This document shows, in pieces, positions 3,048-60,779 of a DNA stretch of 64,000 nucleotides; positions within the stretch are counted from its first letter, which is position 1; each line of letters begins with the position of its first letter. Location: assembly GCA_964651815.1 (NCBI GenBank), contig CAZYWG010000010.1, forward strand, positions 1,377 through 65,376, in the 5' to 3' direction. A model generated the notes under the pieces. The model was not told where the DNA came from, did no database searches, and saw only the letters and a program-made list of their open reading frames with translations. A program made the position numbers and the translations under genes. The stretch is from an uncultured Gammaproteobacteria bacterium. Its GTDB lineage: Bacteria > Patescibacteriota > Microgenomatia > Levybacterales > GWA1-39-11.

Positions 3048-4208
3048 TTAAATTCTTTTTTTAGTTTTGATGTTCATAAATATAAAAATAGAAATGATTG
3101 CGCAAACAACGGCAAAATAAAAAGTTGCAGCAGGCGCAACAAATGACCAAAGAAGCCCTCCAATCACAGACGCGGCGAGCGTAAAAATACTAGTCACCGT
3201 ATTTAAAACGCCATACGCTATCCCTGCACGCTCCTTATCAATGAGCGAACCAACCATAGCTTTTGAAACGCCGTCAGTTAGCGCAATATAAAATCCATAA
3301 ATTCCAAATAAAGGCCACATAAGAAGCCCGTTTGTATCAAGTGCAAACCCCAGGTAAACTAGCGCAAAGATCACGATTCCCGCAATGAAAACTTTTTTAG
3401 TCCCAATTTTGTCTGATATTATTCCCGCAGGAGTAGAAGCCGCAGCGTAGACAATGTTGTAAACAATATAAGCAGAAATTACTAAAATCAAACTAAGACC
3501 TAAGGACTTTGCCCTGAGAATCAAAAAACTGTCAGAGCTATTGCCAAGTGAAAAAATAACAAGCCCCAGAAGAAAAAGACGCAATTCTCCAGGAAAACTT
3601 TTGAATGATAACGCAAATTTGGTTTTAGTTGTAATAATTTTCTTCCGGGTCTCCTTTACCCAGATGAAAAAAATAAGGCTTAAAAAAGCAGGGATTGTGG
3701 CAATGTATAAAATCAAACGAATATTGTTATGGAATATATACAAAAGCAAAAGTGCAATTGTTGGCCCAACCACAGCTCCCGCTGTATCCATTGACCTATG
3801 AAATCCAAAAATCAAACCTTTATTATTCTCTTCTGTCGCATCAAGTAGCAACGCGTCGCGCGCGCCAGTCCTGGCACCCTTCCCCATCCTGTCAACAATT
3901 CTGCCAATTAAAACAATGGGCCAACTGTAAGACGCGGCTATAATCAATTTAGATACAGCACTCCCTCCGTATCCTGCAATCACAAACGGCTTTCTTTTCT
4001 GCAATCTGTCAGACCAATAACCAAAAGCTGTTTTAAATAATGACGCGCCTCCTTCTGCAACTCCTTCAATAATTCCCACAACAAAAACCGGCGCCCCAAG
4101 GACTTGAGTCAGAAATATTGGCATAACCGGATAAAGCATTTCAGACGCAGTGTCATTGAGGAAGGAAACGAGGCTCAAAAGCCAAACTACCTTAGGAATT
4201 TTCTTCAT
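3048..4208 (-). CDS. MFS transporter
   Basis: About 12 hydrophobic helices. MFS-like loop motif GRIVDRMGKGARTGARDAL between TM2–3. Confidence 0.65.
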   Translation of the reverse strand: MKKIPKVVWLLSLVSFLNDTASEMLYPVMPIFLTQVLGAPVFVVGIIEGVAEGGASLFKTAFGYWSDRLQKRKPFVIAGYGGSAVSKLIIAASYSWPIVLIGRIVDRMGKGARTGARDALLLDATEENNKGLIFGFHRSMDTAGAVVGPTIALLLLYIFHNNIRLILYIATIPAFLSLIFFIWVKETRKKIITTKTKFALSFKSFPGELRLFLLGLVIFSLGNSSDSFLILRAKSLGLSLILVISAYIVYNIVYAAASTPAGIISDKIGTKKVFIAGIVIFALVYLGFALDTNGLLMWPLFGIYGFYIALTDGVSKAMVGSLIDKERAGIAYGVLNTVTSIFTLAASVIGGLLWSFVAPAATFYFAVVCAIISIFIFMNIKTKKRI

Positions 4209-4780: not shown

Positions 4781-6535
4781 GTGTCTTTTTTTATGGCACA
4801 AAGCATTCATAAAAAATTAGGTCAGTGGGCAGCTACCGCTATTTGCGGCAATGATATCCTGAGTTCGTGTCTGTATGTCTCTGGTATTGCTGTAATTTAC
4901 GCCGGAATTTTTGCGCCAGTTGTTCTTGTAATAATTGTTGCCATACTATTCTTCTACAAGGCCGTTTACACAGAGGTTGTTGAAGCGCTTCCAATAAACG
5001 GAGGCGCGTACAATTGTCTTCTCAACGCAACTTCAAAATCTCTTGCTGCAGTAGCCGGTGTTCTAACTATTCTTTCATACATTGCAACAGCAGTTCTTTC
5101 TGGGAAAGTAAGTATTGAATATCTTCATACCATTTTTACCACAATCCCGGTCATCCCGGCAACAATAGGACTTCTTTTGTTTTTTACTGTCCTAGTAATT
5201 CTTGGGATTAAAGATTCTGCAAAAGTTGCGCTTGGAATTTTTATTCTACACATTGTAAGTCTTGTTGCTTTTGTTTCACTTGGTATTTATACGCTTCTCA
5301 CCCACCACGCTTTATTTATAGAAAATGCCATTCACACTTTCACTTTATTGCACAAAGAAGGTGGAATAGTAATTGCTTTATTCTTGGGATTTTCGGCTTC
5401 ACTTCTTGGAATCTCCGGATTTGAAAGCTCTGCTAATTTTGTGGAAGAACAAGAGGAAGGCGTATTCCGCAAAACACTTAGAAATATGTTGATAGGAGTT
5501 GCAATATTCAACCCTCTAATTGCTTTTATTATTTTGGGTCTCTCCCCTCTATCTGCAATTGTTGCGTCAAAAGATTATCTGCTTTCTCAAGAAGCGCTTA
5601 TTATTGGTGGAAAAATTTTCCAATATTTTATAGTAATCGACGCCTTTGCGGTTTTGGCAGGAGCTGTTTTGACATCATTCGTTGGAGTCTCTGGTCTTAT
5701 TTACAGGATGGCATCCGACGCTTGTTTACCGGGATGGCTTACTCATAAAAACAAGAACGGAAGCCACCCCAGAATCATCATTTTATTTTTCCTACTTTGT
5801 ACATCAATTTTGATCATGACTGGTGGAAATATTCTTTCGCTCGCCGGTGTTTATACAATTGCATTCCTGGGTGTCATGAGCATGTTTGCTCTTGGGAATT
5901 TAATTTTACGCGAAACTAGAACTGATCTTAAACGCACATATTCGGCCCCCATTCTTTTTGTTTTAGTCGCGTTCACTGCTACGCTTTCCGGAATTGCCGG
6001 AAATATTCAAATTGACAAAAACAATCTCATATATTTTGCAATTTATTTTTTCCCTGTAATAATGCTTGTTGAAGGAATTGTTTTTCAAGATGTGAATATC
6101 AGAATTCTAAGACGTCTAACACGTGGTGTTAAATTTGTTAACAAATATCTTGAGGACCATTTTGAAGACATAACTGAGGATAGAATTGTAGCTTTTGTTA
6201 ACCATGTTGAAAGACTCCACCCGCTTCTTACGTATATAAATTCTAATGAAACGGCTTGGAATATAACGCTTGTTCACTGTGCAAATCATGATAACAAAGA
6301 CGACAGGAAACGTTTTGGAGAAATTAAGCAAGCACTCCCGTATTTACAGAAAGCCGGGGCATTCCCTTATTTTAAAATAGAATGTGATTACCTTGATATG
6401 CCATTTGGCCCGGATGCAATAATTGAGGTGGCAAAAAAATATAAAGTCAGACCAAATAGAATTATGATTGGTTCAATTCACCACTTCCACCCTTTTGATT
6501 ACGACGAGCTCGGCGGCGTCCGCATAGTATTCTAG
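4781..6535 (+). CDS. APC-superfamily amino-acid/polyamine permease with about 150-aa C-terminal cytoplasmic extension
   Basis: 12-TM core with N-terminal GQWAATAICGNDILSSCLYVSG signature of amino acid permeases. C-terminal soluble domain has no recognisable family. Confidence 0.65.
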   Translation: MSFFMAQSIHKKLGQWAATAICGNDILSSCLYVSGIAVIYAGIFAPVVLVIIVAILFFYKAVYTEVVEALPINGGAYNCLLNATSKSLAAVAGVLTILSYIATAVLSGKVSIEYLHTIFTTIPVIPATIGLLLFFTVLVILGIKDSAKVALGIFILHIVSLVAFVSLGIYTLLTHHALFIENAIHTFTLLHKEGGIVIALFLGFSASLLGISGFESSANFVEEQEEGVFRKTLRNMLIGVAIFNPLIAFIILGLSPLSAIVASKDYLLSQEALIIGGKIFQYFIVIDAFAVLAGAVLTSFVGVSGLIYRMASDACLPGWLTHKNKNGSHPRIIILFFLLCTSILIMTGGNILSLAGVYTIAFLGVMSMFALGNLILRETRTDLKRTYSAPILFVLVAFTATLSGIAGNIQIDKNNLIYFAIYFFPVIMLVEGIVFQDVNIRILRRLTRGVKFVNKYLEDHFEDITEDRIVAFVNHVERLHPLLTYINSNETAWNITLVHCANHDNKDDRKRFGEIKQALPYLQKAGAFPYFKIECDYLDMPFGPDAIIEVAKKYKVRPNRIMIGSIHHFHPFDYDELGGVRIVF

Positions 6536-12162: not shown

Positions 12163-12381
12163 TAAATTTATGGAAAATAGAGCAAACCCTCGGAGCCTAC
12201 AAGAACTTCTTGCAATGAAACAACAGGATGCGCGTGCAAAAAGCTCTCCGGTTGGGGGTAAATCACGTACTCCGGAAACTCAGGGGCTTCACGGTATGAG
12301 AATCAGTGGTAATAGAAGCAGAAAAAACCATATAAGGCTAAAATATACATAAAAGTAGTATTATCTAGCTTCCGAAATTCC

Positions 12382-12425
12382 AAAAAAAACAGCCCCGGTT
12401 TCCCGAGGCTATGAAACTTTTTTAA
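12382..12425 (-). terminator. Intrinsic terminator for gene 12431..12721. On the minus-sense strand it reads as hairpin AGCCTCGGG-aaa-CCGGGGCT followed by T8. It is partly bidirectional.
   Basis: GC stem with one G·U pair, followed by a U8 tract in minus sense. Confidence 0.6.
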
Positions 12426-12430
12426 AAAGT

Positions 12431-12721
12431 TTATAGATTTCCCTGTCTATTACCACAAACAGCGCTATTGTTTAGTCCTGTCTGCTCTCCGTTAGCACCT
12501 CCTGCTAGATTGTTATCTTTTCCAAAATAACCAAATGCCCCTGAACCTGCTCCTGAGTCACATTGAGCTCCAACTTCTGTGGCTTGTTGTCTTCCGGGAT
12601 TATCATTATATCTATCTATTCCCGGTGTTGAATTTCCTGCAGCGAATGCCGGCACTACCAAACTCCCACACATTACTACAGTAGCTGCTGTCGTAAATGC
12701 AATTTTTTTAATATTTAACAT
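12431..12721 (-). CDS. Small secreted Gly-rich 2-Cys protein (paralog family with 12931..13185)
   Basis: Signal peptide MLNIKKIAFTTAATVVMCGSLVVPAFAA, Gly/Asn-rich mature part with 2 Cys. Strong RBS AAAGGAGGTGAATAT. Confidence 0.5.
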   Translation of the reverse strand: MLNIKKIAFTTAATVVMCGSLVVPAFAAGNSTPGIDRYNDNPGRQQATEVGAQCDSGAGSGAFGYFGKDNNLAGGANGEQTGLNNSAVCGNRQGNL

Positions 12722-12735
12722 ATATTCACCTCCTT

Positions 12736-12784
12736 TAGAAATTCTTAACGAACTTCGTGAGTTTTAGAATTTCTTAAGTCCGCC
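12736..12784 (-). promoter_or_regulatory. Conserved cis-element, copy C: TTAAGAAATTCTAA ... ACGAAGTTCGT ... AGAATTTCTAAAGGAGG, directly upstream of 12721 start
   Basis: Shares the TTAAGAAATTCTAA and ACTTCGTG/CACGAAGT motifs with copies at 13992–14070, 16066–16140 and 16761–16817. Confidence 0.5.
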
Positions 12785-12870
12785 AATAAGAGTATCTTAC
12801 ACATTCCTTAATGCTAGCTTGTCTATGTAAGACACATATAATAAATAAGCAAGATGAATGTAAGCTAGCC

Positions 12871-12912
12871 CAAAAAAAACAACCCTCCGGGAGCGCTCCC
12901 ATTGGGCTGTTT
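12871..12912 (-). terminator. Putative intrinsic terminator for gene 12931..13185 (GGGAGCGCTCCC palindrome followed by T8 in minus sense)
   Basis: GC palindrome plus U8. The stem is short, so moderate. Confidence 0.4.
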
Positions 12913-12930
12913 TAAAACTTCACGTCAAAA

Positions 12931-13185
12931 CTATGGAGTCGGATCTCCACCACATCCAGTCTTGTATGCTTGGTTGATTGGACCGTTATCTCCGGCCCGT
13001 TGTGAAGCGTAATAACCTACTCCACCTGCATCATGACCAAGTGATCCGTTTACTACTGCATATGCTGCGCGGTCTGAACCGAAACATCCCGGGGTTGCTG
13101 GTGCTGCTGCGAATGCAGGAGCAATTAAGCTTCCCACCATCATAGTAGTTGCTGCTGCTGTAAACGCTATTTTCTTAATACTCAT
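12931..13185 (-). CDS. Small secreted Gly-rich 2-Cys protein (paralog of 12431..12721)
   Basis: Signal peptide MSIKKIAFTAAATTMMVGSLIAPAFAA is nearly identical to its neighbour's. RBS AGGAGGTGAATAAAAAATG. Confidence 0.5.
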   Translation of the reverse strand: MSIKKIAFTAAATTMMVGSLIAPAFAAAPATPGCFGSDRAAYAVVNGSLGHDAGGVGYYASQRAGDNGPINQAYKTGCGGDPTP

Positions 13186-13243
13186 TTTTTATTCACCTCC
13201 TGCCTTACCGGCCATACGGCCGGGGTTTTATTCAAATCATATC

Positions 13244-13975
13244 CTACGGAGTTACTGTAGGACCTGCTCCTAAGTTTTTGCCTTGTGTGGCAAAGAAACT
13301 TACGCAATCTCCCTGATTCTTAAATTTGTGACCTTGACCATCGTTAAGATTTTTCCAGCCATCTTTCTTACAGTCATTAACAGTTGGCAAAATCTCTGTT
13401 ATTACTACATTATCCAAAGCAGGACCAAAAGCGCCAGGGATAGTACTTGTAAAACTGAGCGTTGAACTCGTTCCGGTTGCTACAAAAGAATATGAGTGAT
13501 TTTCCCACATCATATTGGTAAGACTATTCCCTTTTGCACTTGTGTCATAGCTATAAGTTGCCGGTGAACCTCCACCGGTTGCATTAATAGTTACTTGTTT
13601 ATTGCTTGGACTATAATAAGGATCGTTCACATCCGAACGGCTATCCGGATTTCCAGACAAATCAAAAGTGACATTGTATTTTCCTCCAGCAACAGTTGTA
13701 AGGGTTTGACTAATAGATCCTGTTGTTAAACCATTAAGATCTATACTCCGTTGTAAATCAGATGCAACCCAATAATTACCGATCCAATCTACGCTACCAG
13801 TATCCACATTCCAACCAGCAATACTGCTGTTGGGGGCGACAAGTGTATCGAATGTCTGCCCTGTGTAACTGCCTTCAAAACTTCCATTAGAACCAACAGC
13901 AAAAGCTGCTCCCGCAACGCTTCCAAATAAAAGTGCTGATGCGGCTGCACTTATTAAAATTTTCTTTATATTCAT
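13244..13975 (-). CDS. Secreted DUF642 / choice-of-anchor-C-like domain protein
   Basis: Signal peptide MNIKKILISAAASALLFGSVAGAAFA. NGSFE...GW.VDTGSVDWIG...DLNG pattern typical of DUF642. Confidence 0.5.
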   Translation of the reverse strand: MNIKKILISAAASALLFGSVAGAAFAVGSNGSFEGSYTGQTFDTLVAPNSSIAGWNVDTGSVDWIGNYWVASDLQRSIDLNGLTTGSISQTLTTVAGGKYNVTFDLSGNPDSRSDVNDPYYSPSNKQVTINATGGGSPATYSYDTSAKGNSLTNMMWENHSYSFVATGTSSTLSFTSTIPGAFGPALDNVVITEILPTVNDCKKDGWKNLNDGQGHKFKNQGDCVSFFATQGKNLGAGPTVTP

Positions 13976-13991
13976 TTTTTATTCACCTCCT

Positions 13992-14070
13992 TTAGAAATT
14001 CTTCCGATTTTAAACTTTGTTTGAAGAGGATTAGAATTTCTTAAGTTCTGCAACTCGTAATGTTGCAGAA
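13992..14070 (-). promoter_or_regulatory. Conserved cis-element, copy A: hairpin CTGCAAC-tcgtaat-GTTGCAG, then TTAAGAAATTCTAATCCTCTTCAAACAAAGTTTAAAATCGGAAGAATTTCTAAAGGAGG, then ATG of 13975
   Basis: Near-identical 45-nt core with copy B (16066–16140). Possible -35 TTCTAA / -10 TAAAAT. Confidence 0.55.
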
Positions 14071-14171
14071 CCATGCGCTAAGAATTCTTTCCGAACAGTT
14101 AACTTTATTCTTTATAGAGACAGATTGTCAAGACGGGCAAAACATGACTTTTTATATCAATCTGACAAAGA

Positions 14172-15122
14172 TTAAAGAGAGATGAGGTCCAGGAATCTGT
14201 TGAAAATATTTTCACTTGTTCCCGTAATATCTCCTGTATCAGCAGATACCGTAACGGTTTTACCTACAGATACGGGAATAAAGCCAAACAACTTTTTATC
14301 AAGAGAGCCTTTAACTTTATAAACAGGCGCTCCGTTTTCTTCAGTCAATTCTATATTGTCATTTGTTACGCTTGATATTGACTGCCCGTCAGATGAGGAG
14401 GTAGTAAACAAGACTCCGCTGCCGCTTGAACTTCCGCCAGACTCTTCTGCAGAACTTGAGGCAATGTGTCCCCCGATTTTGCTTATTATCCCTTTTGTCA
14501 AAATATTTTCCACTGCACGGTCCGGCAGAATAGTAACAACTTTTGTACCGGCAGGCGTTGTAATAATAAGCGCGTTTGTTGTGGGGTCAATTGAAATTGG
14601 AAAGTGGGATATTGCCCCCAAATGTTTACCGTGTACATCAAAGCTTCCTCCGTTAGTTGCAATATCAACATTCTCCAACTCATTCCCAACTTCAACTTCA
14701 TGCTCAACTGGTGTAGGTTTAATTAAATTTCCAATTACGGATCTTCCGTGAGTCCCAACATTCTCCGCAGAGACTTGAGTATTTCCACGGACCGAATCAC
14801 TACCAGAGCCGTGACTATCCGAATTTGATGCCGGTGGATTATGTGAACCCGATTCTATAGAATTCAATCCACCATGCTCTCCACCACTTCCACCACCGCC
14901 GATATCATCTCCGCCACGAGCCAAAAAAGAACTTGCTCCCAATACGTTTGGCTGCAAAAGCATTGTCGAAATTTTGAAAGTTACTCCTCCGAACAAAACC
15001 ATAAGAACAGATACAATTACAATTCTAAAAAGTACGCTTTGAGATTTCTTTTGTGGAGATTTTTTTCCTTTTCTTTGAGTTGACATATATATAATTTGAC
15101 ACAAAAAGCAATAGTTTGTCAA
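14172..15122 (-). CDS. Membrane-anchored Gly/Ser-rich protein of unknown function. The likely true start is the internal Met at 15086 (MSTQRKGKK...).
   Basis: Basic N-tail plus one TM, then a GGGGSGGEHGG low-complexity region and a Ser/Thr-rich C-terminal. Confidence 0.4.
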   Translation of the reverse strand: MTNYCFLCQIIYMSTQRKGKKSPQKKSQSVLFRIVIVSVLMVLFGGVTFKISTMLLQPNVLGASSFLARGGDDIGGGGSGGEHGGLNSIESGSHNPPASNSDSHGSGSDSVRGNTQVSAENVGTHGRSVIGNLIKPTPVEHEVEVGNELENVDIATNGGSFDVHGKHLGAISHFPISIDPTTNALIITTPAGTKVVTILPDRAVENILTKGIISKIGGHIASSSAEESGGSSSGSGVLFTTSSSDGQSISSVTNDNIELTEENGAPVYKVKGSLDKKLFGFIPVSVGKTVTVSADTGDITGTSENIFNRFLDLISL

Positions 15123-15192
15123 TACATACGAGGTAAACGTTTACCAATCGAATTAAAATATTAGATTATTCGAAATTGAAAGTAGTTTAAAT

Positions 15193-15741
15193 TTAGAAGG
15201 GGTAACCTTTGAGGCCTTGGACTCCTTTGATAGCAGAAATTTCTCCCGTCAAATGGGCTGCGTGCGCTATAACAAAATTGCTAATTAGCATAGCCCTAGA
15301 ACTTTTTCCCATCGGCCCCATATCTATTTCTTCATCTAAATCTTCTTCTTTAAGGGTTGCCAGATAGTCATCTGACTGTTTGTAAACTTTTTGCGCAAAC
15401 GATTTAAGTTTTGCCAAGTCAATTTTTACAGTTTTAACCCAAGCGGGATATGTTGAAAAATCGCCGGTTGGCATAGGGATAGAAAGCCCGGTGTCGGCTC
15501 CTTCCGTCATCATTTTTTTCTTCATTAGCATTTGCGAAACAATCATGTCTTCAGAAATTACAGCGTGGGCATAGGAAGCTCCGACAGATTGTGCTTTTCC
15601 GGTGTCGGAAAAATCAGCGACTTCAGGGGTAACATCATTCATAGTCCCTTCAAGGACTTCATGGTTTGATTTTAATTGGTCACGCAATAACTGAACGGTA
15701 TTCATACCACTCATTATATTAGTAGAATAAAAGCAATACAA
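15193..15741 (-). CDS. DinB/YfiT-like (DinB_2 superfamily) protein
   Basis: C-terminal SNFVIAHAAHLTGEISAIKG, reminiscent of the DinB-family His motif. Uncertain. Confidence 0.4.
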   Translation of the reverse strand: MYCFYSTNIMSGMNTVQLLRDQLKSNHEVLEGTMNDVTPEVADFSDTGKAQSVGASYAHAVISEDMIVSQMLMKKKMMTEGADTGLSIPMPTGDFSTYPAWVKTVKIDLAKLKSFAQKVYKQSDDYLATLKEEDLDEEIDMGPMGKSSRAMLISNFVIAHAAHLTGEISAIKGVQGLKGYPF

Positions 15742-15778
15742 TAAGAAAAATGTAATCTTTCCGTATCAATTTTATATC

Positions 15779-15949
15779 TTAGTTCTTGCGCATGAAATCA
15801 AGTGCTCCTGCAATAACAACTATTACTACTCCAACCAAGACGCTAGCAAGTGATGGCACAAGTGCTGCCAAAATAAGACCGAGACCAAGACCAACTGCAG
15901 AATGCATAATTGCGTGCGGCGTAAAACATTCTTTCATTTTTTTATCCAT
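15779..15949 (-). CDS. Small membrane protein (56 aa) missed by the ORF track: MDKKMKECFTPHAIMHSAVGLGLGLILAALVPSLASVLVGVVIVVIAGALDFMRKN
   Basis: Manual minus-strand translation. RBS GGAGGTGATAATAAATG. Lies downstream of conserved element copy B. Confidence 0.45.
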   Translation of the reverse strand: MDKKMKECFTPHAIMHSAVGLGLGLILAALVPSLASVLVGVVIVVIAGALDFMRKN

Positions 15950-16065
15950 TTATTATCACCTCCAATCTTTTTTCGTCCCTAGAAATAATATGAAGAAAAA
16001 GATTGGACACTGAGCACCGAGGTGCGAAGTGTAACCTATTTCTTTTGGGACTAACTATTTAATTA

Positions 16066-16140
16066 TATTCTTTCCGATTTCAAACTTTGTTTGAAGAGGA
16101 TTAGAATTTTTTAAGTCCTGCAGCACTTCGTGTGCAGGAC
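16066..16140 (-). promoter_or_regulatory. Conserved cis-element, copy B: hairpin GTCCTGCA-cacgaagtg-cTGCAGGAC, then TTAAAAAATTCTAATCCTCTTCAAACAAAGTTTGAAATCGGAAAGAAT
   Basis: 45-nt core matches copy A with 2–3 differences. Possible -10 TGAAAT. Confidence 0.55.
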
Positions 16141-16191
16141 TACAGTTAATTTTTACATATCTCTTCGATCTCTTGTCAATACTCAAAACTG

Positions 16192-16566
16192 CTATGAATT
16201 TCTCTCTAGGAATTTCTCGAGTGCATCTAGTTGCCTAGTCCAAAATTCTTTGTAAAACTCAACATAGCGATATGCGTCTTTTAATGGCTGCGGATGGAGA
16301 TGAATTATATGCTCTCTTCCCATTTTTTGACGTCTGATAAGTTTTGCTTTTTCCAAAACTTTTAAATGTTTACTGACTGCAACCAGTGACATTTTATAAG
16401 GCTCTTTAATTTCTGTGACAGTAAGAGGTTTTTTAGTAAGTCTCTCAAGAATTTTTCTTCGCGTCGGGTCTGAAAGAGATTGAAATATCAAGTCTAATTG
16501 CGGGTTGCTGTAAAGATGCTTAACCATTTGGTTAAACATAATACCAGAGGGGATTTTGGATGTCAA
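16192..16566 (-). CDS. ArsR/SmtB-family winged-helix transcriptional regulator
   Basis: LSDPTRRKILERLTKKPLTVTEI...VSKHLKVLEKAKLI HTH signature. Confidence 0.7.
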   Translation of the reverse strand: MTSKIPSGIMFNQMVKHLYSNPQLDLIFQSLSDPTRRKILERLTKKPLTVTEIKEPYKMSLVAVSKHLKVLEKAKLIRRQKMGREHIIHLHPQPLKDAYRYVEFYKEFWTRQLDALEKFLERNS

Positions 16567-16578
16567 GTGTAAGAATGC

Positions 16579-16752
16579 TTAATTTGGCTGGGGGACTTTT
16601 GCGCCTTCTCTTCTCGCCTCGGATAAACCTATGGCAATTGCCTGTTTTCTGGATTTTACTTTCTTGCCACTCGTACCCATTTTGAGCTTCCCCGCTTTCA
16701 TTTCCTTAATTGCGCGCTCTACTTTTTTTCCTGCTTTTGGTCCATATTTCAT
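16579..16752 (-). CDS. Small basic protein (57 aa): MKYGPKAGKKVERAIKEMKAGKLKMGTSGKKVKSRKQAIAIGLSEARREGAKVPQPN. It resembles a widespread small 'KGG/general-stress-like' family.
   Basis: Manual translation. Below the ORF-track size cutoff. Directly preceded by element copy D. Confidence 0.45.
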   Translation of the reverse strand: MKYGPKAGKKVERAIKEMKAGKLKMGTSGKKVKSRKQAIAIGLSEARREGAKVPQPN

Positions 16753-16760
16753 AAAAAATA

Positions 16761-16817
16761 TTTCCGAACTTCAGTGAGGATTAGATTTTTTTGCTTCAGA
16801 CACGAAGTGACTGAAGT
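16761..16817 (-). promoter_or_regulatory. Conserved cis-element, copy D (shortened): TTTCCGAACTTCAGTGAGGATTAGATTTTTTT plus hairpin GCTTCAG-acacgaagtga-CTGAAG
   Basis: Shares TTCCGA, GAGGATTAGA, an A/T tract and a hairpin with a CACGAAGTG loop with copies A and B. Confidence 0.45.
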
Positions 16818-16829
16818 TACCTTCTCCTC

Positions 16830-17078
16830 TTAAAAATCATGTATCCATATTTTTTGGGGGGATGAGAAAACTTCCCTGTTTAAAACAGCAAACAACGCAA
16901 ATTCAGAATCCGGAAATGGTTCATCTCTTAGTTCATCTGCGGCGATGAGTAAATCTTTCCTTTCGCCTTCATCTATGTTTTCGGCATGGCTCTCGAGCAA
17001 GACTTCCAACTCTTCCCAACACCTAAGTTGCATATCATTCCATAGTAAACCTATATCTTCACGCGAAACCTTTGACAT
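16830..17078 (-). CDS. Acidic hypothetical protein (82 aa)
   Basis: ORF only. Confidence 0.35.
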   Translation of the reverse strand: MSKVSREDIGLLWNDMQLRCWEELEVLLESHAENIDEGERKDLLIAADELRDEPFPDSEFALFAVLNREVFSSPQKIWIHDF

Positions 17079-52937: not shown

Positions 52938-54452
52938 TTGAAGAATTTATTAACGCACTACAGAAAATCCATCAATCCCCCATATGGCGGAAAAGATTAT
53001 CCCGCTATCGCAGCAACCTTATTGTTTCTTCTAGTTTCATTAGTTGTAATAATAAGTCTTCCCAATAAGCTAAACCAAAACGCTTATCCAAAAAGCGGCT
53101 CTGCACAAACTGTTACAAACAGAATAACATGGCAAGGAAACAACTGGTATATTCACGGCGCAAACGTTCCATGGTACAACTGGGGGTGTGATTTTGGGTG
53201 TAACTCAACAAATGGGAAAAGCGGCGGCGTTTCGAACAACCTAAGCAATCTCACTGTAGCATTCCAACAGGCAAAAAATTCAGGAGTTCATGTTTTAAGG
53301 TGGTGGGTTTTTCCGGGTGATCCGTGGCAAATCACGCGTGACAGCGCGGGCCCAACCGGAATTGATCCTGCCGTATATCCTGATTTTGATGCGGCTTTAA
53401 ATCTTGCAAACCAATATGATATGTACTTTAATTTTATGTTGTTTTCTGCACCCACTGCTATGCCAAGTGCATGGGAGACTGATACAACCCAGAGAGGCAA
53501 ATTAGTTCAAGCGCTCAGCACTCTTTTTGCGCATTATGCCGGCAATCCAAGAATACTGTCTTGGGAAATTTACAACGAACCGGAAAATGACATTTGGAAT
53601 AATAGGATAGCTCAACAACCCGTTGTTGATACCGGTACTGCTATTGCAACTGCAGTCCACTCAAGTTCTCCAGGGACGCTTGTCACGGTAGGAAGTTTAT
53701 TTGCTGATGGAATGAAAATGTGGCTAAATGCTGGACTTGACTACTATTCTCCTCACTGGTATGACTACATGAGCGGTGGCGATTATTGCATGATTTGTCA
53801 CAATTATAGTTATTATTCTGCTTGGGGAGTAACAAAACCAATTGTAGTTGGTGAATTTTATTCGGGAACAAGCGCAACGACACCGACATCTTCAAACAGG
53901 TATGATTATTGGTATAACAACGGCTATGCTGGCGCGTGGGCTTGGTCATTATTCCCAAGTCATACTAGCGACGGTTTGCAAATTGATTTTACTGCTGCAA
54001 CAAATTTTGCTTCTCAACATGCAGATATTGGGCCAATTGCCGGATTTTCCTCAACCCCAACGCCTACTCAGGCCGTATCCTTGACACCTACCCCCGCAAT
54101 CTCACAGGCACCATCTTCTACTCCCACACCATCGCCAAGCCTTACTCCTGTACCGACAGTAGGATCAAATGACGCAACCGCTCCAACTGTGACTATCACC
54201 TCGCCTTTAGCCGGCTCAACTGTAGCTGTTAGGAAGAATGTAACAATTCAAGCAACTGCCTCTGACAACGTTGGAGTTTCGAGGGTAGAATTCTATATCA
54301 ATGGAACGCTGACCTGTACCGACATTTCGAGCCCCTACTCTTGTTCTTGGAAAGTTCCTGGCTCAAAGAACAGAACTTACAAATTGTCTGCCAAGGCGTC
54401 GGATGCTGCCGGTAATAATTCAACAAGCTCAATTAGTGTTACTGCAAGATAA
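52938..54452 (+). CDS. Glycoside hydrolase family 5-like (cellulase/mannanase clan GH-A) with a C-terminal Ig-like domain. Signal-anchored with an N-terminal YRKSINPPY motif.
   Basis: WEIYNEPEN (GH5 acid/base NEP motif), then a Thr/Pro linker and a 95-aa Ig-like domain shared with four neighbours. Confidence 0.65.
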   Translation: MKNLLTHYRKSINPPYGGKDYPAIAATLLFLLVSLVVIISLPNKLNQNAYPKSGSAQTVTNRITWQGNNWYIHGANVPWYNWGCDFGCNSTNGKSGGVSNNLSNLTVAFQQAKNSGVHVLRWWVFPGDPWQITRDSAGPTGIDPAVYPDFDAALNLANQYDMYFNFMLFSAPTAMPSAWETDTTQRGKLVQALSTLFAHYAGNPRILSWEIYNEPENDIWNNRIAQQPVVDTGTAIATAVHSSSPGTLVTVGSLFADGMKMWLNAGLDYYSPHWYDYMSGGDYCMICHNYSYYSAWGVTKPIVVGEFYSGTSATTPTSSNRYDYWYNNGYAGAWAWSLFPSHTSDGLQIDFTAATNFASQHADIGPIAGFSSTPTPTQAVSLTPTPAISQAPSSTPTPSPSLTPVPTVGSNDATAPTVTITSPLAGSTVAVRKNVTIQATASDNVGVSRVEFYINGTLTCTDISSPYSCSWKVPGSKNRTYKLSAKASDAAGNNSTSSISVTAR

Positions 54453-54500
54453 CATATTCAATAGTCTAGAAACTAGCTACTGGCAAAATACGGCAGGGAA

Positions 54501-56747
54501 ATGAAATTGAAACAACTTATACAAACATATAGAAAAGGGATTAATCCACCATATTCTAAAAAAGATTTCCCAATTGTTGCAGGTACTCTACTCGTTTTGC
54601 TTATTGTTACTCTTGTTGTAGTTATTCTTCCTAATCAATATAAGAGTAAACAAACAGAAAACACTCATGCACAGGAAGTAAAAAAGATTGAGGTACAAGC
54701 TGCACCAGACGAAATTTTAGTAAAATTTAAACCAGGGGCAACAGAACGGATTAAAAATTCTGTCAGGCGGGCATTTGGACTAACCAAAAAAGATGAACTT
54801 ACGCAAATTGGTGTTGAAGTATTGAAAACAACTCCGGTGAACCGGGATCACATCGCCGAAGCGTTAAATAAACGACCTGAAGTTCAGTTTGCGCAACTCA
54901 ATTTTATTACTAAACCTGCAATTGTACCAAATGACACTAATTATTCTACACAATGGCACTTACCTGATATTTCTGCAGATAGAGCTTGGGATGTTGCAAA
55001 AGCTACTGGAATCCTAATAGGAATGTGTGATACAGGAGTAAATCAAGTTCCGGATCTAGCCCCGGTCTTGCGGACAGATCTTGGTTGGAACGCGGTTGAT
55101 GGATCTAGCAACTTCAGTGACCCCATAGGGCACGGAACCGGTACGGCGGGTGCGGCTGCGGCAGCAACAAACAATGCTCTTGGGGTAGCTGGCGTTGCTT
55201 GGGGAGCACAAATTATACCTGTTAGAGTCAGCAATCTTTCGGATGGTTCCGCGTATACAAGTGATATTGCAAAATGTATTAATTATTCGGCAGATCATGG
55301 AGCAAAAGCTATCAATGCTTCCTACGGTGTAGCCGGCGACTCAACTATCAATTCAGCCGGACTTTATGCACAGAGCAAAGGAGCATTGCTTACTATTTCT
55401 GCCGGAAATAGTGGTTTGGATCCAGGATGGTCTAACTTGCCAGGTATTATTGCAGTTTCCGCTATGGACACTCTTAACAATCCTGCTACCTTTACAAATT
55501 TCGGAAATTTTATTGATGTGGCAGCCCCAGGTGCAAGTATTTATACTACAAAAAATGACGGAAACTATTGGTATACTGCAGGTACGTCTTTTAGCGCGCC
55601 GATTGCAGCCGGAGTGATTGGCCTTATTTTCGGCGCAAAACCCTCATTAACTGCAGCTCAGGCTCAGGATATTTTGTTTAAAAATTCGGATGATCTTGGG
55701 ATCTCTGGATGGGATAAATATTTTGGATGGGGACGAGTTAATGCGCTCCGCACTGTAGATGCAGCCCTGGGTCTTGCACCGGACACTACGGCACCCATTG
55801 TTTCCATTACCAATCCTATAACAAATTCTACTGTTTCCGGCCAATCTGTATCAATTAGTACACAAGCTTCAGATAATTTTGGAGTAACTAAAGAAGAACT
55901 TTATATAGACAACGCTCTAATTGGAACAACGACCTGGTTCTTCTCCGGTGGAACTGCATCGTTCACTTGGGACTCAAGAACCGTTCCAAATGGATCACAT
56001 ACTATCATCGCCAAAGCTTATGATGGGGCAGATAATGCTGGAACTTCAACATCTGTAATAATCAATGTTGTGAATTCTTCCGATATCACTGATCCCACAA
56101 TTTCAATCACAAGTCCGGCAAACAACACCACTGTTTCCGGAACTATAAATGTTGCAGCAATAGCATCAGATAACATTGGTGTAGTAAAAGTAACTTTTGA
56201 TAAGTTTGGTGCACCGTTACAAACATTTACTAACCCTCCTTATTCTTTTTCCTGGGACACAAATGCCGCATTGGCGAGCCAATGTCCAACCACATGTATA
56301 ACAAATATTCAGGCGACAGCATATGATGCCGCTGGAAATTATGCATCTGCAAACGTAGGTATAACTTATAACAATAGTGGTGTAACTACCTCTCCTACAG
56401 CAACACCAACAATTGGTTTATCTCCCACAAATACTCCCATTCCATCCCCTACACCTTCCTTAACAGATCATACTTCGCCAACTGTAACTATCTCCTCTCC
56501 TCTCGCGGGGTCAACAGTAGCGGTTCGTTCAAATGTAAATATCCAAGCAACAGCTTCTGACAATATTGGAGTTGCCCGAACAGAGTTCTATGTCAATGGA
56601 ACTCTCACTTGTAGCGATACGAGCTCACCCTACTCTTGTTCTTGGAAAGTGCCGGGAGCTAAGAATAAAAGCTATTCGATTAGTGCAAAAACGTATGATG
56701 CTGCTGGAAATAATTCAACAAGCTCAATTAGTGTAACGGCAAAATGA
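54501..56747 (+). CDS. Subtilisin-like serine protease (peptidase S8) with I9 propeptide and three C-terminal Ig-like domains. N-terminal YRKGINPPY motif.
   Basis: Catalytic triad contexts GMCDTGVN (Asp), HGTGTAG (His), GTSFSAPIAAG (Ser). Confidence 0.8.
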   Translation: MKLKQLIQTYRKGINPPYSKKDFPIVAGTLLVLLIVTLVVVILPNQYKSKQTENTHAQEVKKIEVQAAPDEILVKFKPGATERIKNSVRRAFGLTKKDELTQIGVEVLKTTPVNRDHIAEALNKRPEVQFAQLNFITKPAIVPNDTNYSTQWHLPDISADRAWDVAKATGILIGMCDTGVNQVPDLAPVLRTDLGWNAVDGSSNFSDPIGHGTGTAGAAAAATNNALGVAGVAWGAQIIPVRVSNLSDGSAYTSDIAKCINYSADHGAKAINASYGVAGDSTINSAGLYAQSKGALLTISAGNSGLDPGWSNLPGIIAVSAMDTLNNPATFTNFGNFIDVAAPGASIYTTKNDGNYWYTAGTSFSAPIAAGVIGLIFGAKPSLTAAQAQDILFKNSDDLGISGWDKYFGWGRVNALRTVDAALGLAPDTTAPIVSITNPITNSTVSGQSVSISTQASDNFGVTKEELYIDNALIGTTTWFFSGGTASFTWDSRTVPNGSHTIIAKAYDGADNAGTSTSVIINVVNSSDITDPTISITSPANNTTVSGTINVAAIASDNIGVVKVTFDKFGAPLQTFTNPPYSFSWDTNAALASQCPTTCITNIQATAYDAAGNYASANVGITYNNSGVTTSPTATPTIGLSPTNTPIPSPTPSLTDHTSPTVTISSPLAGSTVAVRSNVNIQATASDNIGVARTEFYVNGTLTCSDTSSPYSCSWKVPGAKNKSYSISAKTYDAAGNNSTSSISVTAK

Positions 56748-58207
56748 TTAGAGAGATGAAAAAGTTATTAAAAGATTATAGAAAGGCAATTAATCCTCCG
56801 TACTTAAAAACGGATGTTCCGATTATAAGTGCTACCCTGCTCATTCTCCTGCTCGCAGTCATCCTGATCCTAAATTTACCGGATGTATTCAATTCAAAAA
56901 AAATTACTGAATCTCATGCGGCAGTTGATTGCGGAACATCACTTCAGACAAAAATTGATGGGGCTCTATCGGGTTCCACAGTGGACCTGACCGGTTGCAC
57001 ATATAGCGGGACTAATATTCAGATTTCAAAACCCTTAACAATAATCGGGGGAAGTTTTAACTCAACTTCAACTGATCGCTGGAGCAATGCTTTTGTAATT
57101 AATTCAGATAACGTAACTGTTCAGAAATGGACATTTGCTGGAGGTGGTCAAATTATTGCGGATCTTGGACACTCAAATGTAAATATTCTCAACAACAGTT
57201 TTTCCAATCAATTAGGCTCCTCTGTAGCGCTCTGGGGAGCATCAAACAACGTAATAATTGACGGAAATAAAATTGTTCAATCTGTAACAAATCAAGTTTC
57301 ACCTATAATAGCAAGAGCATCGGAAGATTGCTCTGTCTATCTTAAAAACTTAATAATAAGAAACAACTATATGGATCAGGGACCGGCCGGGGTAGGTTGG
57401 TTTGGTATAGAACTAAAATGTAATGATGGTGTCCTAATTGAAAATAATACGCTCCATGGTGGAGAAACCTTAGTCTCTCTCCCGGATACTAATAATGTTC
57501 AGGTTAAAAATAATACATTTGACATGACCGGAGATGCTTATTGGGGGGTGGAAATAGCCCATGCAAACAACGTGACAGTCGCTGGAAATACATTTTTCGG
57601 AGATGGGCCTTCTGGCACAGATCATGCGGTATCAGAAAACAGCGGCAGTCAAAACTCCTATATATCCGGTAATAATGTGCATGATATTAGAACTCTTGTT
57701 GATGTAGGTGGGGATTATATCTCAATAACTGATAATTGCCTGGTAAATGTGTTGAGGGTAACGGAATATGATAGTTCGGGAACTCATGTAATATTGTCAA
57801 ACAACGGTCCGTGTCCTTCTCCTTCTGTTACACCAACGGGTGTAATTACTACTCCATCAACGACTCCGACACCCGCACCAACTGTGACTGCATTCCCAAC
57901 TCCCGCACCAACCGTGACCTCAAACGACACAACATCCCCTAGCGTTAGGATAGATTCCCCGCTTAACGGATCAATAATAAAAGCAAAATCTACAACGTCA
58001 ATTACCGCGTCGGCTTCAGATAATTTGGGAGTGACAAGAGTTGAATTTCTAGTCAACGGTACGCTCATCTGTTCGGATACCACTTCGCCTTACACGTGCT
58101 CATGGAGAGTACCAGGTTCAAGAAATAGAACATATACTATTTCTGCCAAAGCATATGACGCCGCCGGAAATAATTCAACTAGTTCTATTAGTGTCACGGC
58201 AAAGTGA
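56744..58207 (+). CDS. Right-handed parallel beta-helix (pectate-lyase-like) protein with a C-terminal Ig-like domain. N-terminal YRKAINPPY motif. ATGA overlap with the S8 gene.
   Basis: Repeated NN(x)F/I...G..N beta-helix rungs (NVNILNNSF, NNVIIDGNKIV, IIRNNYM, IENNTLHGG, VKNNTFDMTGD, VAGNTFFGDG). Confidence 0.5.
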   Translation: MIREMKKLLKDYRKAINPPYLKTDVPIISATLLILLLAVILILNLPDVFNSKKITESHAAVDCGTSLQTKIDGALSGSTVDLTGCTYSGTNIQISKPLTIIGGSFNSTSTDRWSNAFVINSDNVTVQKWTFAGGGQIIADLGHSNVNILNNSFSNQLGSSVALWGASNNVIIDGNKIVQSVTNQVSPIIARASEDCSVYLKNLIIRNNYMDQGPAGVGWFGIELKCNDGVLIENNTLHGGETLVSLPDTNNVQVKNNTFDMTGDAYWGVEIAHANNVTVAGNTFFGDGPSGTDHAVSENSGSQNSYISGNNVHDIRTLVDVGGDYISITDNCLVNVLRVTEYDSSGTHVILSNNGPCPSPSVTPTGVITTPSTTPTPAPTVTAFPTPAPTVTSNDTTSPSVRIDSPLNGSIIKAKSTTSITASASDNLGVTRVEFLVNGTLICSDTTSPYTCSWRVPGSRNRTYTISAKAYDAAGNNSTSSISVTAK

Positions 58208-58300
58208 GGTTAACTCTTGACAAAATTACAGTATTAATACAACAATTAACTTGTTAAGCATTTGAGAAAAACTTATTTTCGACTAATTAAATAAAAAACC

Positions 58301-59620
58301 GTGGAAGAACAAAAACTTAAATTACCAAAAAAAGATTCCTCAGTTCAATTTCACGCTTTTGCTTATGTTATAGTTGGAGTTTTTATTGGTCTCATAGTAG
58401 GTTTCTTTAGTGCGTTTTTGTATCTTAAAAACATCGCGATCTCTCCAAACGTTGCAATAACTAAGACTGAAGAAAGTGCTCCTGCAGAACTTCCACCACA
58501 AGCTGCACTTCACGTACCGGTGTGCATTCCAAGAGGACCACAAGCTGTGAAATGTCATGCCCAAGTGGTAATCAATAAAAGTGGACAACCTGATTTGACA
58601 AGCGTACCTCAAGGATATGGCCCCGTACAATTCCAGACAGCATATAGCCTTTTGGGGAAAAGTTCTTCCGGAAGAATTGTTGCAATAATTGATGCATATG
58701 ATAACCCAAATATTAAGCCTGATCTAGACACATATAGCGGTGCGTTTGGGCTTCCTGTTCTCCCAACATGCCAAACAACAATTAAAGATTCCGCAACTCC
58801 TTGTTTTCAAAAAATTGATCAAAGAGGGGGAACATCCTACCCAGCTGCCGATTCTTCATGGGCTCTTGAAATTGCACTGGATACTGAAGTAGTACACGCT
58901 GCCTGCCCCGACTGTAAAATTCTTCTTGTGGAGGCAGACAGTAATACTTATGACAGTTTGTTGGCGGCAGAGGATAAGGCTGTTGCTCTTGGAGCTTCTG
59001 TTGTCTCAAACTCCTACGGTTCAGGCGAATTCAGCTCAGAAACATCATTTGACAGCCATTTCAACGTTGCGGGGGTAGCTTTCACCTTCTCCTCAGGAGA
59101 CGCGGGTTACGGGAGTACATATCCCGCAGCCTCACGTTATGTCACAGCGGTTGGCGGGACTACCCTTCTTTTAAACTCTAATAATACGTATAAAAATGAA
59201 ACTGCCTGGAGCGGCGCAGGAAGCGGTTGTTCAAATTTTGAAATTAAGCCAACATGGCAAAGTGATAAAGGATGCCCTATGAGGACAATTGTTGATGTCT
59301 CAGCTGATGCTGACCCTTCAAGTGCTGCTGCAGTTTATGATACGGTTCCTTACGGCGGGACGGGTCAAACAGGTTGGTTCCAGGTTGGCGGGACAAGCCT
59401 TGCTTCACCGCTCGTCGCTGCTGTATTCGCACTCAAAGGAGTGCCACCAGGCACACAAGCAAACTCTCTCCCATATCTTTCCGCTACCACCGGATTAAAT
59501 GACGTGACTAGAGGTTCAAACGGTGGGTGTCCTCAAAAAAACAAATATTTATGTAGTGCAGTCGTGGGCTATGATGGACCAACGGGTCTCGGGACTCCAA
59601 AGGGAATAGGTGCATTTTAA
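58301..59620 (+). CDS. Peptidase S8/S53 (sedolisin-like) family serine peptidase, membrane-anchored
   Basis: SGDAGYGSTYPAASRYVTAVGGTTL and GGTSLASPLVAAVFALKG (Ser nucleophile), typical of S53/S8. Confidence 0.55.
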   Translation: MEEQKLKLPKKDSSVQFHAFAYVIVGVFIGLIVGFFSAFLYLKNIAISPNVAITKTEESAPAELPPQAALHVPVCIPRGPQAVKCHAQVVINKSGQPDLTSVPQGYGPVQFQTAYSLLGKSSSGRIVAIIDAYDNPNIKPDLDTYSGAFGLPVLPTCQTTIKDSATPCFQKIDQRGGTSYPAADSSWALEIALDTEVVHAACPDCKILLVEADSNTYDSLLAAEDKAVALGASVVSNSYGSGEFSSETSFDSHFNVAGVAFTFSSGDAGYGSTYPAASRYVTAVGGTTLLLNSNNTYKNETAWSGAGSGCSNFEIKPTWQSDKGCPMRTIVDVSADADPSSAAAVYDTVPYGGTGQTGWFQVGGTSLASPLVAAVFALKGVPPGTQANSLPYLSATTGLNDVTRGSNGGCPQKNKYLCSAVVGYDGPTGLGTPKGIGAF

Positions 59621-59643
59621 TCTCTTCTCATAGAAGAAAATAT

Positions 59644-60012
59644 TTAGATAAGTTCTTCTAGCTCCTCAGGTGCATCATGGTCTTCAAAAACTCCTTGCTC
59701 ATCCCAAATAAGCGCTTGAAGTAGATATTCTTTCAGAAGACGAAGACGTTTTATTTCTTTTAGCAATTTTGTTGCTTTTTGAGGGTGGTTGCGGACTAAT
59801 TGATAGAAAAGCGATTCGAGTTGCTGTAATCTATTTGAAATTGCCTGATGAGTTGCAATAATTTTTCCCTGGCGGCTCCTCTTTCTGTATGTTTTAAATT
59901 CACGTAACCGCTGCCACTCGCCGGCCTGAATTTCGCGATTCAAATCTGAATCTACAACATCATCGCGCTTTTCTTGAGTACTGGACTTTTCTTCTTTATT
60001 TTTTTTCTCCAT
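59644..60012 (-). CDS. Hypothetical charged protein (122 aa)
   Basis: ORF only. Confidence 0.3.
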   Translation of the reverse strand: MEKKNKEEKSSTQEKRDDVVDSDLNREIQAGEWQRLREFKTYRKRSRQGKIIATHQAISNRLQQLESLFYQLVRNHPQKATKLLKEIKRLRLLKEYLLQALIWDEQGVFEDHDAPEELEELI

Positions 60013-60015
60013 GAA

Positions 60016-60222
60016 TTATCTTACTACTTCTGCAAGTTTTTCCGGAAGGTCTATTCCTGTACGCACAAGCCCAGAACCCACAGCGCCCCCCATTTTACGT
60101 GCGATGTTGTAATAAATCCACTTATCTTTCCTGCGAATTGCCGCAAGATAATCAAAAATATCCCAGTTTTGTGTATTGTATTCTCTTTCCATATTATTGT
60201 TTAATTTTTTGGCTCCCGCCAT
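60016..60222 (-). CDS. Hypothetical small protein. Start is ambiguous (Met at 60222 or 60192), and it overlaps a second small minus-strand ORF at 60201..60356 encoding a 51-aa membrane peptide.
   Basis: Two overlapping small frames; neither verified. Confidence 0.25.
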   Translation of the reverse strand: MAGAKKLNNNMEREYNTQNWDIFDYLAAIRRKDKWIYYNIARKMGGAVGSGLVRTGIDLPEKLAEVVR

Positions 60223-60427
60223 CGTCCAATAAAAAATATCGCAAGCCCAACTGCTACCATCGGATAGTCAACGCTTATAACACCCAAAAGCGTGAGTGCG
60301 CCTCCTAGTCCTTTTTCAAAAATTGATTCAGCTTTTCTGTAGGTTTCTTTTGCCATTTGATGTAATTATATAACTTGAACAAAAATAATCTTCACGAATA
60401 AATAACAATATTGTGATAAAGTAGATT

Positions 60428-60682: not shown

Positions 60683-60779
60683 TAAAGAATATTATACTAC
60701 CTATAGGATACTTTTAGCAAATCGCGGGCATCCTAAATGTATTGCTTGTTAATATTTCTTTGACTATACTATATACATT

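Follow-up and report, generated by a model that had tools for sequence, protein, structure and literature searches.

Four related upstream elements in a 64-kb Patescibacteria window: a possible locally duplicated promoter-leader cassette

Four short related sequences lie upstream of small genes within a few kilobases of contig CAZYWG010000010.1, and the question raised by this locus is whether they act as operators, as promoters or as transcribed leaders, or are traces of duplication. The whole stretch of DNA that was analysed, referred to as the window, is 64 kb long. An earlier note on this DNA, made from its letters, had proposed a cis-acting role in expression for these sequences, which is reasonable since they form a real, non-random family in front of genes. 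The explanation that we favour, tentatively, is that they are copies of a promoter and 5' leader cassette duplicated locally in one lineage, whose hairpin and core would be transcribed and exert their effect as RNA. All descriptions of the element refer to the minus strand, and its copies are lettered A to D in coordinate order; the letters used in the earlier note were inconsistent with its own coordinates. The copies are:

12721-12830, minus strand: copy A, upstream of the gene for a 96-amino-acid (96-aa) secreted protein
13975-14131, minus strand: copy B, upstream of a DUF642/choice-of-anchor-C secreted protein gene and, after it, an 84-aa paralogue of the gene at copy A
15949-16179, minus strand: copy C, upstream of a 56-aa membrane protein gene, which is followed by the gene of a DinB_2 protein
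16752-16832, minus strand: copy D, upstream of a DUF6496 protein gene, which is followed by the ArsR-family regulator

The genes downstream had been described as encoding small secreted or membrane proteins, and three of the four fit this description; the exception is the DUF6496 protein downstream of copy D, which is basic, soluble and without a signal peptide. Neither do all copies lie directly 5' of their genes as claimed, given that the core of copy C is 147 nucleotides (nt) away from the start codon. All genes between 2.3 and 20 kb of the window are on the minus strand.

That the copies belong together is clear from match counts. The 14-mer AAAWTCTAATCCTC is found exactly at 14026, 16096 and 16776 (copies B, C and D), three times against 0.00 expected in 64 kb, and the 19-mer core TTAAGAAATTCTAATCCTC occurs on the minus strand at 12759-12777, 14026-14044 and 16096-16114 with 2, 0 and 1 mismatches, respectively; with up to three mismatches allowed, these three matches in the window compare with 0.04 expected. 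Moreover, all three window sites of CACGAAGT (n = 3) fall inside copies. The proposal of a non-random family of four upstream copies is thus borne out. The cores are:

12759..12777, minus strand: copy A core TTAAGAAATTCTAAAACTC, with 2 mismatches to the copy B core and no GC hairpin upstream
14026..14044, minus strand: copy B core TTAAGAAATTCTAATCCTC
16096..16114, minus strand: copy C core TTAAAAAATTCTAATCCTC
16776..16789, minus strand: copy D core AAAATCTAATCCTC, predicted to pair with GAGGAGAAGGU (16820-16829) in the lower stem of hairpin P1

Beyond the core the family is a mosaic with sharp homology boundaries, as judged from pairwise alignments; a MAFFT alignment misaligned the hairpins. 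Copies B and C share 62 nt at 87% identity without gaps, or about 75 nt at about 88% with two gaps; their homology takes in the -10 and start region of the promoter and, in the alignment, runs from hairpin P1 across the core to 22 nt beyond it, as far as TCGGAAGAAT. Between copies A and B it comprises the core and then resumes from AAGAATTTCTAAAGGAGG / ACTTAAGAAATTCTAA, running through the start codon into the signal-peptide codons, and between A and D it is limited to a short middle part, AAGAAATTCTAAAACTCAC-GAAGTTCG and CTCAC(T)GAAGTTCG. What copy D has in common with the other copies is the hairpin and 14 nt of the core.

The GC hairpin, called P1 here, lies directly 5' of the core in three of the four copies (B, C and D), in which AAAWTCTAATCCTC follows it by 8-9 nt:

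14045..14071, minus strand: copy B hairpin P1, GTTCTGCAAC-ATTACGA-GTTGCAGAAC, with 10 perfect pairs (14045-14054/14062-14071)
16114..16141, minus strand: copy C hairpin P1, AGTCCTGCA CAC GAA GTG C TGCAGGACT, with 9 pairs (16114-16122/16133-16141)
16794..16816, minus strand: copy D hairpin P1, CTTCAG T CAC TTC GTG T CTGAAG, starting 14 nt past the stop codon of an 82-aa gene

Between B and C, the P1 stem shows one compensatory change, T-A to C-G. The stem of copy D is different in sequence from both, and the 10 nt in the middle of this hairpin, CACTTCGTGT, match the centre of the C hairpin read as its reverse complement. A GC hairpin had been attributed to every copy; it is present in B, C and D but not in A, where the sole "hairpin" is the inverted repeat of AGAAWTTCT itself. 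Likewise, the hairpin loop ATTACGAGT does exist, although it belongs to the copy at 13992-14070, contrary to the lettering under which it had been reported. The statement that the hairpins are not terminators stands: none scores as an intrinsic terminator, and they lack a U-tract, being followed by UUAAGAAA, UUAAAAAA or CAAAAAAA. Canonical terminators are located elsewhere, at 12389-12412 and 12876-12913.

A second structural feature is an inverted repeat that joins the core to the ribosome-binding site. The AGAAATTCT/AGAATTTCT repeats adjoin the Shine-Dalgarno (SD) sequence in copies A (12733-12748/12763-12778) and B (13990-14002/14033-14045). An AGAAWTTCT inverted repeat abutting the ribosome-binding site is accordingly real in A and B but missing from C and D, and AGAATTTCTAAAGGAGG, said to come after the core in "copies A and C", follows it in the copies at 12736 and 13992, that is, the first and second, and not in the third. 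In copy A the two pairing arms are CUUAAGAAAUUCU, from the core, and AGAAUUUCUAAAG, which extends as far as the SD GGAGG (12729-12733), and the loop holds CACGAAGUUCG. The 5' segment of copy B resembles the downstream TCGGAAGAATTTCT and is predicted to be able to pair with the core as well. The strands involved are:

12733..12778, minus strand: copy A long inverted repeat, with 16-nt arms that are 88% complementary and 14 nt apart
13990..14002, minus strand: copy B SD-proximal strand AGAAUUUCUAAAG, complementary to the core (13-nt arms, 92%), with the SD GGAGG at 13986-13990
14079..14093, minus strand: copy B 5' segment CGGAAAGAATTCTTA; the CGGAAAGAAUUCUUAG of the leader is one base longer, to 14078
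16753..16775, minus strand: copy D 3' part ACTGAAGTTCGGAAATATTTTTT, including 9 nt perfectly complementary to the 5' arm of P1 (16767-16775 versus 16810-18)
Leader helix strands: AGAAAUUCU/AGAAUUUCU

Another SD-abutting stem was seen between the DUF642 and 84-aa genes at 13208-13223, a GC hairpin (CCGGCC-GUAU-GGCCGG) without a U-tract on the minus strand which ends 9 nt before the SD of the 84-aa gene.

Whether these structures are transcribed depends on the position of the promoters, and for copies B and C good candidates lie upstream of the hairpin:

14102..14131, minus strand: copy B upstream sigma-70-type promoter TTGACA-N18-TAAAGT, matching at 10/12 positions, with its predicted start at the G at 14096 in TGT
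16149..16179, minus strand: copy C upstream promoter, recognised in the sequence as TTGACA, an 18/19-nt spacer and TGTAAAAAT (extended -10 type)
12794..12825, minus strand: copy A candidate upstream promoter, likewise from sequence, TAGACA-N20-TAAGAT, doubtful because its spacer is too long

The promoter of copy B is among the best four sites in 5.6 kb, and TTGACA-like -35 hexamers are typical of the intergenic regions of the window. The predicted start of copy C, the G at 16143, is 2 nt before P1 and that of copy B about 25 nt before it; thus the hairpin, the A-rich stretch and the UCUAAUCCUC box would constitute the 5' end of the mRNA in both. The predicted start in TGT of copy B fits the YRY start element that has been described across bacteria, including a species of the Candidate Phyla Radiation (CPR) (PMC12641261). 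When the upstream promoters of B and C are compared, the -35, the -10 and TTAACTGT are conserved and the 18-nt spacer is identical at only about 4/18 positions; conserved hexamers around a divergent spacer are the signature of a promoter maintained by selection. The spacer of a putative promoter inside the core, considered below, is identical at 18/18 positions between B and C, which points to a constraint beyond hexamers.

Strong SD sequences are rare in this genome, an SD-like sequence preceding only about 10 of the 74 open reading frames (ORFs) of the window. At about ten genes of the window the start codon comes 5-9 nt after a -10 hexamer and there is no SD, from which leaderless mRNAs appear to be frequent in this organism. 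The strong GGAGGTGA sites are concentrated at 12.4-16 kb, on the genes for secreted proteins.

Folding of the leaders gave structures that involve the core in every copy, with partners that vary. The lowest z-score is that of copy C, whose first 84 nt from the predicted start are predicted to form the hairpins P1 and P2 (z = -6.4; frequency of the minimum free energy (MFE) structure, 0.41); in P2 the partner predicted for AUUCU..UCC of the core is GGA.AGAAU, on the other side of a 7-bp apical stem. The distal leader of this copy contains a 12-nt inverted repeat in which a U-tract pairs with AAAAAGAUUGGA, and the latter arm extends into the SD of the 56-aa gene (15959-15963):

16067..16107, minus strand: copy C helix P2, reading 5' to 3' AUUCU, AA, UCC, apical UUCAAAC-AAA-GUUUGAA, GGA, A, AGAAU
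15959..16032, minus strand: copy C distal leader, with a hairpin (16007-16032) and then a 12-nt perfect inverted repeat (15996-16007/15961-15972)

The leader of copy C is long, about 190 nt, and structured. For copy A the predicted helix joins the core strand to the SD-abutting strand (z = -1.7), and it is retained in the centroid. For copy B (z = -3.5) two near-isoenergetic conformations were obtained, one of -29.2 kcal/mol in which the core pairs with an upstream segment that resembles a duplicate of the SD-proximal strand, and the other of -28.8 kcal/mol in which it pairs with the SD-proximal strand itself. The core of copy D is predicted to pair upstream with GAGGAGAAGGU, extending P1 (z = -2.3), a C-like fold being 8.6 kcal/mol worse. 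Altogether, helices of 12-16 nt that abut the SD are predicted in three copies, namely A, B and C. Evidence from single substitutions is divided: one in the small hairpin of A and D, from C-G to U.G, favours the minus strand, and another, described below, the plus strand. A search of the window against Rfam 15 at gathering scores returned no match except two tRNAs; at E values up to 10 there were three weak matches on the terminator at 12360-12440 and one to RUF1 (E = 0.77) that overlaps the distal leader of copy C, none of them relevant.

How far does the element extend beyond this locus? All copies are confined to 12.7-16.8 kb of the window, a span of 4.1 kb, and a search with TCTAATCCTC at up to two mismatches plus a hairpin filter, covering the window and the related CPR loci then fetched, detected no additional copy. 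Species-representative genomes scanned with CTTAARAAATTCTAAWMCTC yielded 10 single matches in unrelated taxa, compared with about 9 expected by a hand-estimated chance. In the Joint Genome Institute (JGI) metagenomes a 21-mer specific for B and C had 0 matches, and a degenerate 19-mer had at least 120, among which none of the matches listed came with a hairpin or extended similarity. Three contigs from the sequencing runs SRR9179560/62 (L001-L003) are 100% identical to the window and thus provide no comparative information. The closest named relatives of the ArsR and DUF642 proteins of the window belong to metagenome-assembled genomes of Candidatus Levybacteria and Daviesbacteria. As for orthologous loci, the element was not found at three ArsR loci (L014-L016; 75-81% identity), nor upstream of the gene at two loci of DUF642 orthologues (58-62% identity) and eight loci of orthologues of the 96-aa protein (79-89% identity), and the similarity of one leader (L142) to A or B is within the range of shuffled sequences. 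The earlier note had held that absence upstream of orthologous genes would speak against its interpretation, and of the four gene families the three that were covered, all but DUF6496, showed this absence. In the literature, we found no description of such an element in CPR. Because it is absent from the orthologous loci and has only chance-level matches in public collections, the element is, within the reach of these searches, specific to this lineage.

These observations are best brought together, in our opinion, by regarding the four copies as paralogous pieces of one promoter and 5' leader cassette, lineage-specific and duplicated locally within the 4-kb cluster of small genes of one Patescibacteria (Microgenomates-like) lineage, with the transcribed hairpin and core influencing mRNA stability or translation; we hold this explanation tentatively, as one that falls somewhat short of being probable. 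In copies B and C transcripts from the canonical TTGACA promoter would begin 2 nt ahead of P1 (C) or about 25 nt ahead of it (B), and P1 would work as a cap-like stem at the 5' end, shielding the mRNA and insulating it against read-through from upstream. For A and B, the A-rich/UUCU core strand would then pair with a strand ending at the first bases of a very strong SD, while in copy C an equivalent pairing at the SD would be made through a different helix of 12 bp. Such pairing next to the SD may set translation initiation, protect the ribosome-binding region, or both. Copy D would represent an intercistronic version of the cassette without an SD. A more specific and quite speculative version, to which we give little weight, is an undescribed lineage-specific cis-regulatory leader RNA, composed of P1, a conserved single-stranded UCUAAUCCUC box and a helix that switches between a 5' partner and the SD-proximal strand, and read by an RNA-binding factor or a small RNA to co-regulate a few secreted or membrane proteins.

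Several points weigh against the cassette. The partner predicted for the core differs between the copies, being a downstream strand in A and C, an upstream one in D and either of the two in B. The four copies amount effectively to two and a half independent sequences, too few for covariation statistics, and one of the B/C substitutions, in the apical stem of copy B, results in a C.A mismatch on the minus strand and a G.U pair on the plus strand. The high identity between B and C could stem from recent gene conversion and not from selection. Copy A combines the lack of a hairpin with an upstream promoter whose spacer is 20 nt, and copy D lies in a 77-nt intergenic region that has no promoter and no SD but a -10-like AAATAT 5 nt before the ATG, the leaderless geometry common in this genome.

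This last arrangement favours, for copy D, an internal promoter, and extended to the whole family it becomes the strongest rival: the core would itself be a sigma-70 promoter with the A-tract as its proximal UP element, and the hairpin the 3' end of the preceding transcript, serving as stabiliser or insulator. The layout would be a -35 TTCTAA or ATCTAA, a spacer of 17-18 nt and a -10 of TAAAAT (B), TGAAAT (C), AAGAAT (A) or AAATAT (D). A promoter with TTCTAA and TAAAAT had indeed been suggested as an alternative, and a -10-like hexamer at this distance is present in all four copies, yet the match is weak, 8/12 in B, 7/12 in A, 7/12 in C (with a G at the essential position 2 of the -10) and 5/12 in D. 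In copy D the hexamer stands 5 nt before an ATG without SD, as at about ten other genes, and gene 63175-63693 has AAGAAT as its -10. Gene A in particular needs a promoter of its own because of the canonical terminator upstream (12876-12913), and it has no good alternative; A is moreover unique among the copies in lacking a GC hairpin and in having a real terminator upstream. However, the promoters of this genome use TTG-type -35 hexamers, matches of this quality are about as frequent as chance would give (19 against 13.5 expected at 9/12 or better), the putative spacer is fully identical in B and C, unlike that of the real promoter upstream, a transcript of copy A would start within or beside the SD, and better TTGACA promoters are available upstream of the hairpin in B and C. 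We consider this reading unlikely, if worth keeping in sight. Less likely still is that the similarity is simply a by-product of recent local duplication or gene conversion, the core having no function and only promoter, SD and hairpins being of consequence. It would agree with the 4.1-kb range within which all copies lie, with their absence upstream of genes whose products are 58-89% identical, with public collections giving nothing beyond chance and with the sharply bounded mosaic. It does not account for flanks of B and C that are near-random except for the promoter hexamers next to 75 nt at about 88% identity, or for the same spacing of 8-9 nt between hairpin and core in copy D despite its different hairpin sequence.

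Two further rivals appear very unlikely to us. One reads the core on the plus strand (GAGGATTAGAAT) as the -10 of an antisense promoter, with a transcript running from the hairpin into the 3' end of the upstream gene. The plus strand does offer TTTAAA-17-TAGAAT (14009-14037) and TTCAAA-17-TAGAAT (16079-16107), each matching at 9/12, and TAGAAT or TAGATT in all four copies, and the substitution mentioned above makes a G.U pair on that strand alone; but A and D have a poor -35, scores of this size are expected by chance and no plus-strand genes or conserved ORFs follow. Nor would such a promoter explain why the copies keep one orientation, lie near downstream start codons and, in A and B, are fused with the SD. 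The other, equally hard to credit, takes the copies for operators of a DNA-binding regulator, either the neighbouring ArsR-family protein or another factor recognising AGAAWTTCT or TCTAATCCTC. The ArsR gene, which had been placed between copies B and D, in fact sits between the third and fourth copies (C and D), and AGAAWTTCT, the only palindrome of the element, is enriched in A and B, with 5 sites in the window against 1.4 expected, 4 of them in copies. Nevertheless, C and D lack it, the ArsR orthologues at 75-81% identity come without the element, and the hairpin is conserved as a structure and not as a sequence, which speaks against a protein site on double-stranded DNA. The orthologues also retain a different palindrome, TWAACC-N4-GGTTAA, at their own start, where an autoregulatory site is expected, and it is nowhere in the copies. 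In view of this conserved palindrome, which is not found in or near any of the four, the claim of an ArsR operator set or local regulon is left unsupported.

The palindrome itself is not part of the element. In the window the ArsR gene has the best promoter match of the region, TTGACA-17-TATTAT (16566-16538; 11/12), and TWAACC-N4-GGTTAA is present at the ArsR start in all four loci, the window and three orthologues, its non-coding half included. The sites are:

16520..16535: perfect palindrome TTAACCA-AA-TGGTTAA, spanning the ArsR start codon and immediately preceded by TTGACA-17-TATTAT
L014, about 3825-3850; L015, about 515-540; L016, about 6035-6060: the corresponding sites of the orthologous loci

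It is probably the autoregulatory operator of an ArsR-family regulator that is widely conserved in CPR, and this side result, a palindromic operator over the regulator's own start codon, is both more readily testable and more general than the repeat family.

Other classes of element were considered and rejected. A leader peptide would find an ORF through the core in all four copies, but the changes between B and C fall at codon positions 1 or 2 and include a frame-shifting 1-nt indel. For mobile intergenic repeats (miniature inverted-repeat transposable elements (MITEs), repetitive extragenic palindromes (REP) or Correia elements), the homology boundaries carry no terminal inverted repeats, and four copies within 4.1 kb are accompanied by none elsewhere in the 64 kb. 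No RYYYAAC/GTTRRRY core sites flank the hairpins on inspection, as an integron attC or gene-cassette array would demand, and a Pfam scan of the ten proteins between 12431 and 17475 gave no integrase. Pairing of CCUCUU with AGGAGG in the manner of an anti-SD mimic is limited to B and C and incompatible with the main helix. Sigma-54, extracytoplasmic function (ECF) and sigma-H promoters, the ops site of RfaH and boxA are each found in at most one or two copies or fail the consensus, and for a competence uptake sequence the copy number is far too low.

Turning to the surrounding genes, the 96-aa secreted protein is encoded at 12431-12721 and its paralogue at 12931-13185, both on the minus strand. 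Its family has about 960 matches in CPR metagenomes and no Pfam match, the mature part of 68 residues is nearly invariant (GNSTPGIDRYLDNPGRQQATEVGAQCGSGAGSGAFGYFGKDNNLAGG...CGNRQGNL), and sortase genes are often adjacent to the orthologues. Two plus-strand ORFs of 41 codons, 14060-14185 and 16130-16255, begin in the B and C hairpins; they are dissimilar to each other and most likely spurious. Far downstream, at 52938-62753 on the plus strand, several large neighbouring genes contain repeated modules of about 170 nt and about 300 nt with 64-84% identity, and probably encode paralogous multi-domain surface or secreted proteins.

To our knowledge, almost nothing about the expression signals of Patescibacteria is known from experiment, and this locus places two modes of gene expression side by side, the mostly leaderless genes without SD and a few secreted-protein genes with structured leaders, strong SDs and a shared cassette. 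If the leader is functional, it would offer a handle on mRNA stability and translational control in CPR, together with a candidate strong expression module for CPR genetics. The cassette is a local feature of a single genome, so its general importance is limited.

Compared with known systems, the copies resemble small intergenic repeats (REP and bacterial interspersed mosaic elements (BIME), Correia, BOX and MITEs) in being short, repeated, palindrome-containing and co-transcribed with neighbouring genes; they differ in occurring as four copies in 4 kb, in having no terminal inverted repeats or target duplications, and in a hairpin sequence that is not the same in B/C and D. With sigma-70 promoters that have A-tract UP elements they share an A-rich stretch directly before a -35-like hexamer and a -10-like hexamer at 17-18 nt, although the hexamers are weak, the B/C spacer is fully conserved and a structured palindrome adjoins the A-tract. 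Hairpin-plus-linear-box elements of nascent RNA are represented by the boxB-boxA of rrn operons and the nut sites of phage lambda, and the order found here, a promoter, a hairpin of variable sequence and a conserved single-stranded box a few nt downstream, is the same; the box, however, mismatches the boxA consensus (GCUCUUUAACAA), and the operons are short, with no need for processive antitermination. Leaders that sequester the SD, such as translational riboswitches and RNA thermometers, differ from ours by a ligand-binding fold, an Rfam match and conservation outside one genome, and here the SD core GGAGG is predicted to be mostly unpaired; the likeness lies in the helices of 12-16 nt that end on the first SD bases in A, B and C, and in the two near-isoenergetic conformations predicted for copy B. 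Finally, 5'-terminal stem-loops stabilise mRNAs in the ompA leader of E. coli and in the aprE and ermC leaders of B. subtilis. In those leaders no conserved linear box follows the hairpin, unlike UCUAAUCCUC here, and the comparison would apply neither to copy D, which is intercistronic, nor to copy A, which has no hairpin, without RNA processing. What copies B and C have in common with them is a predicted GC hairpin about 2 nt from the 5' end (C) or a 5' end that is paired in the MFE structure (B), and, like theirs, the genes downstream have strong ribosome-binding sites and are probably well expressed.

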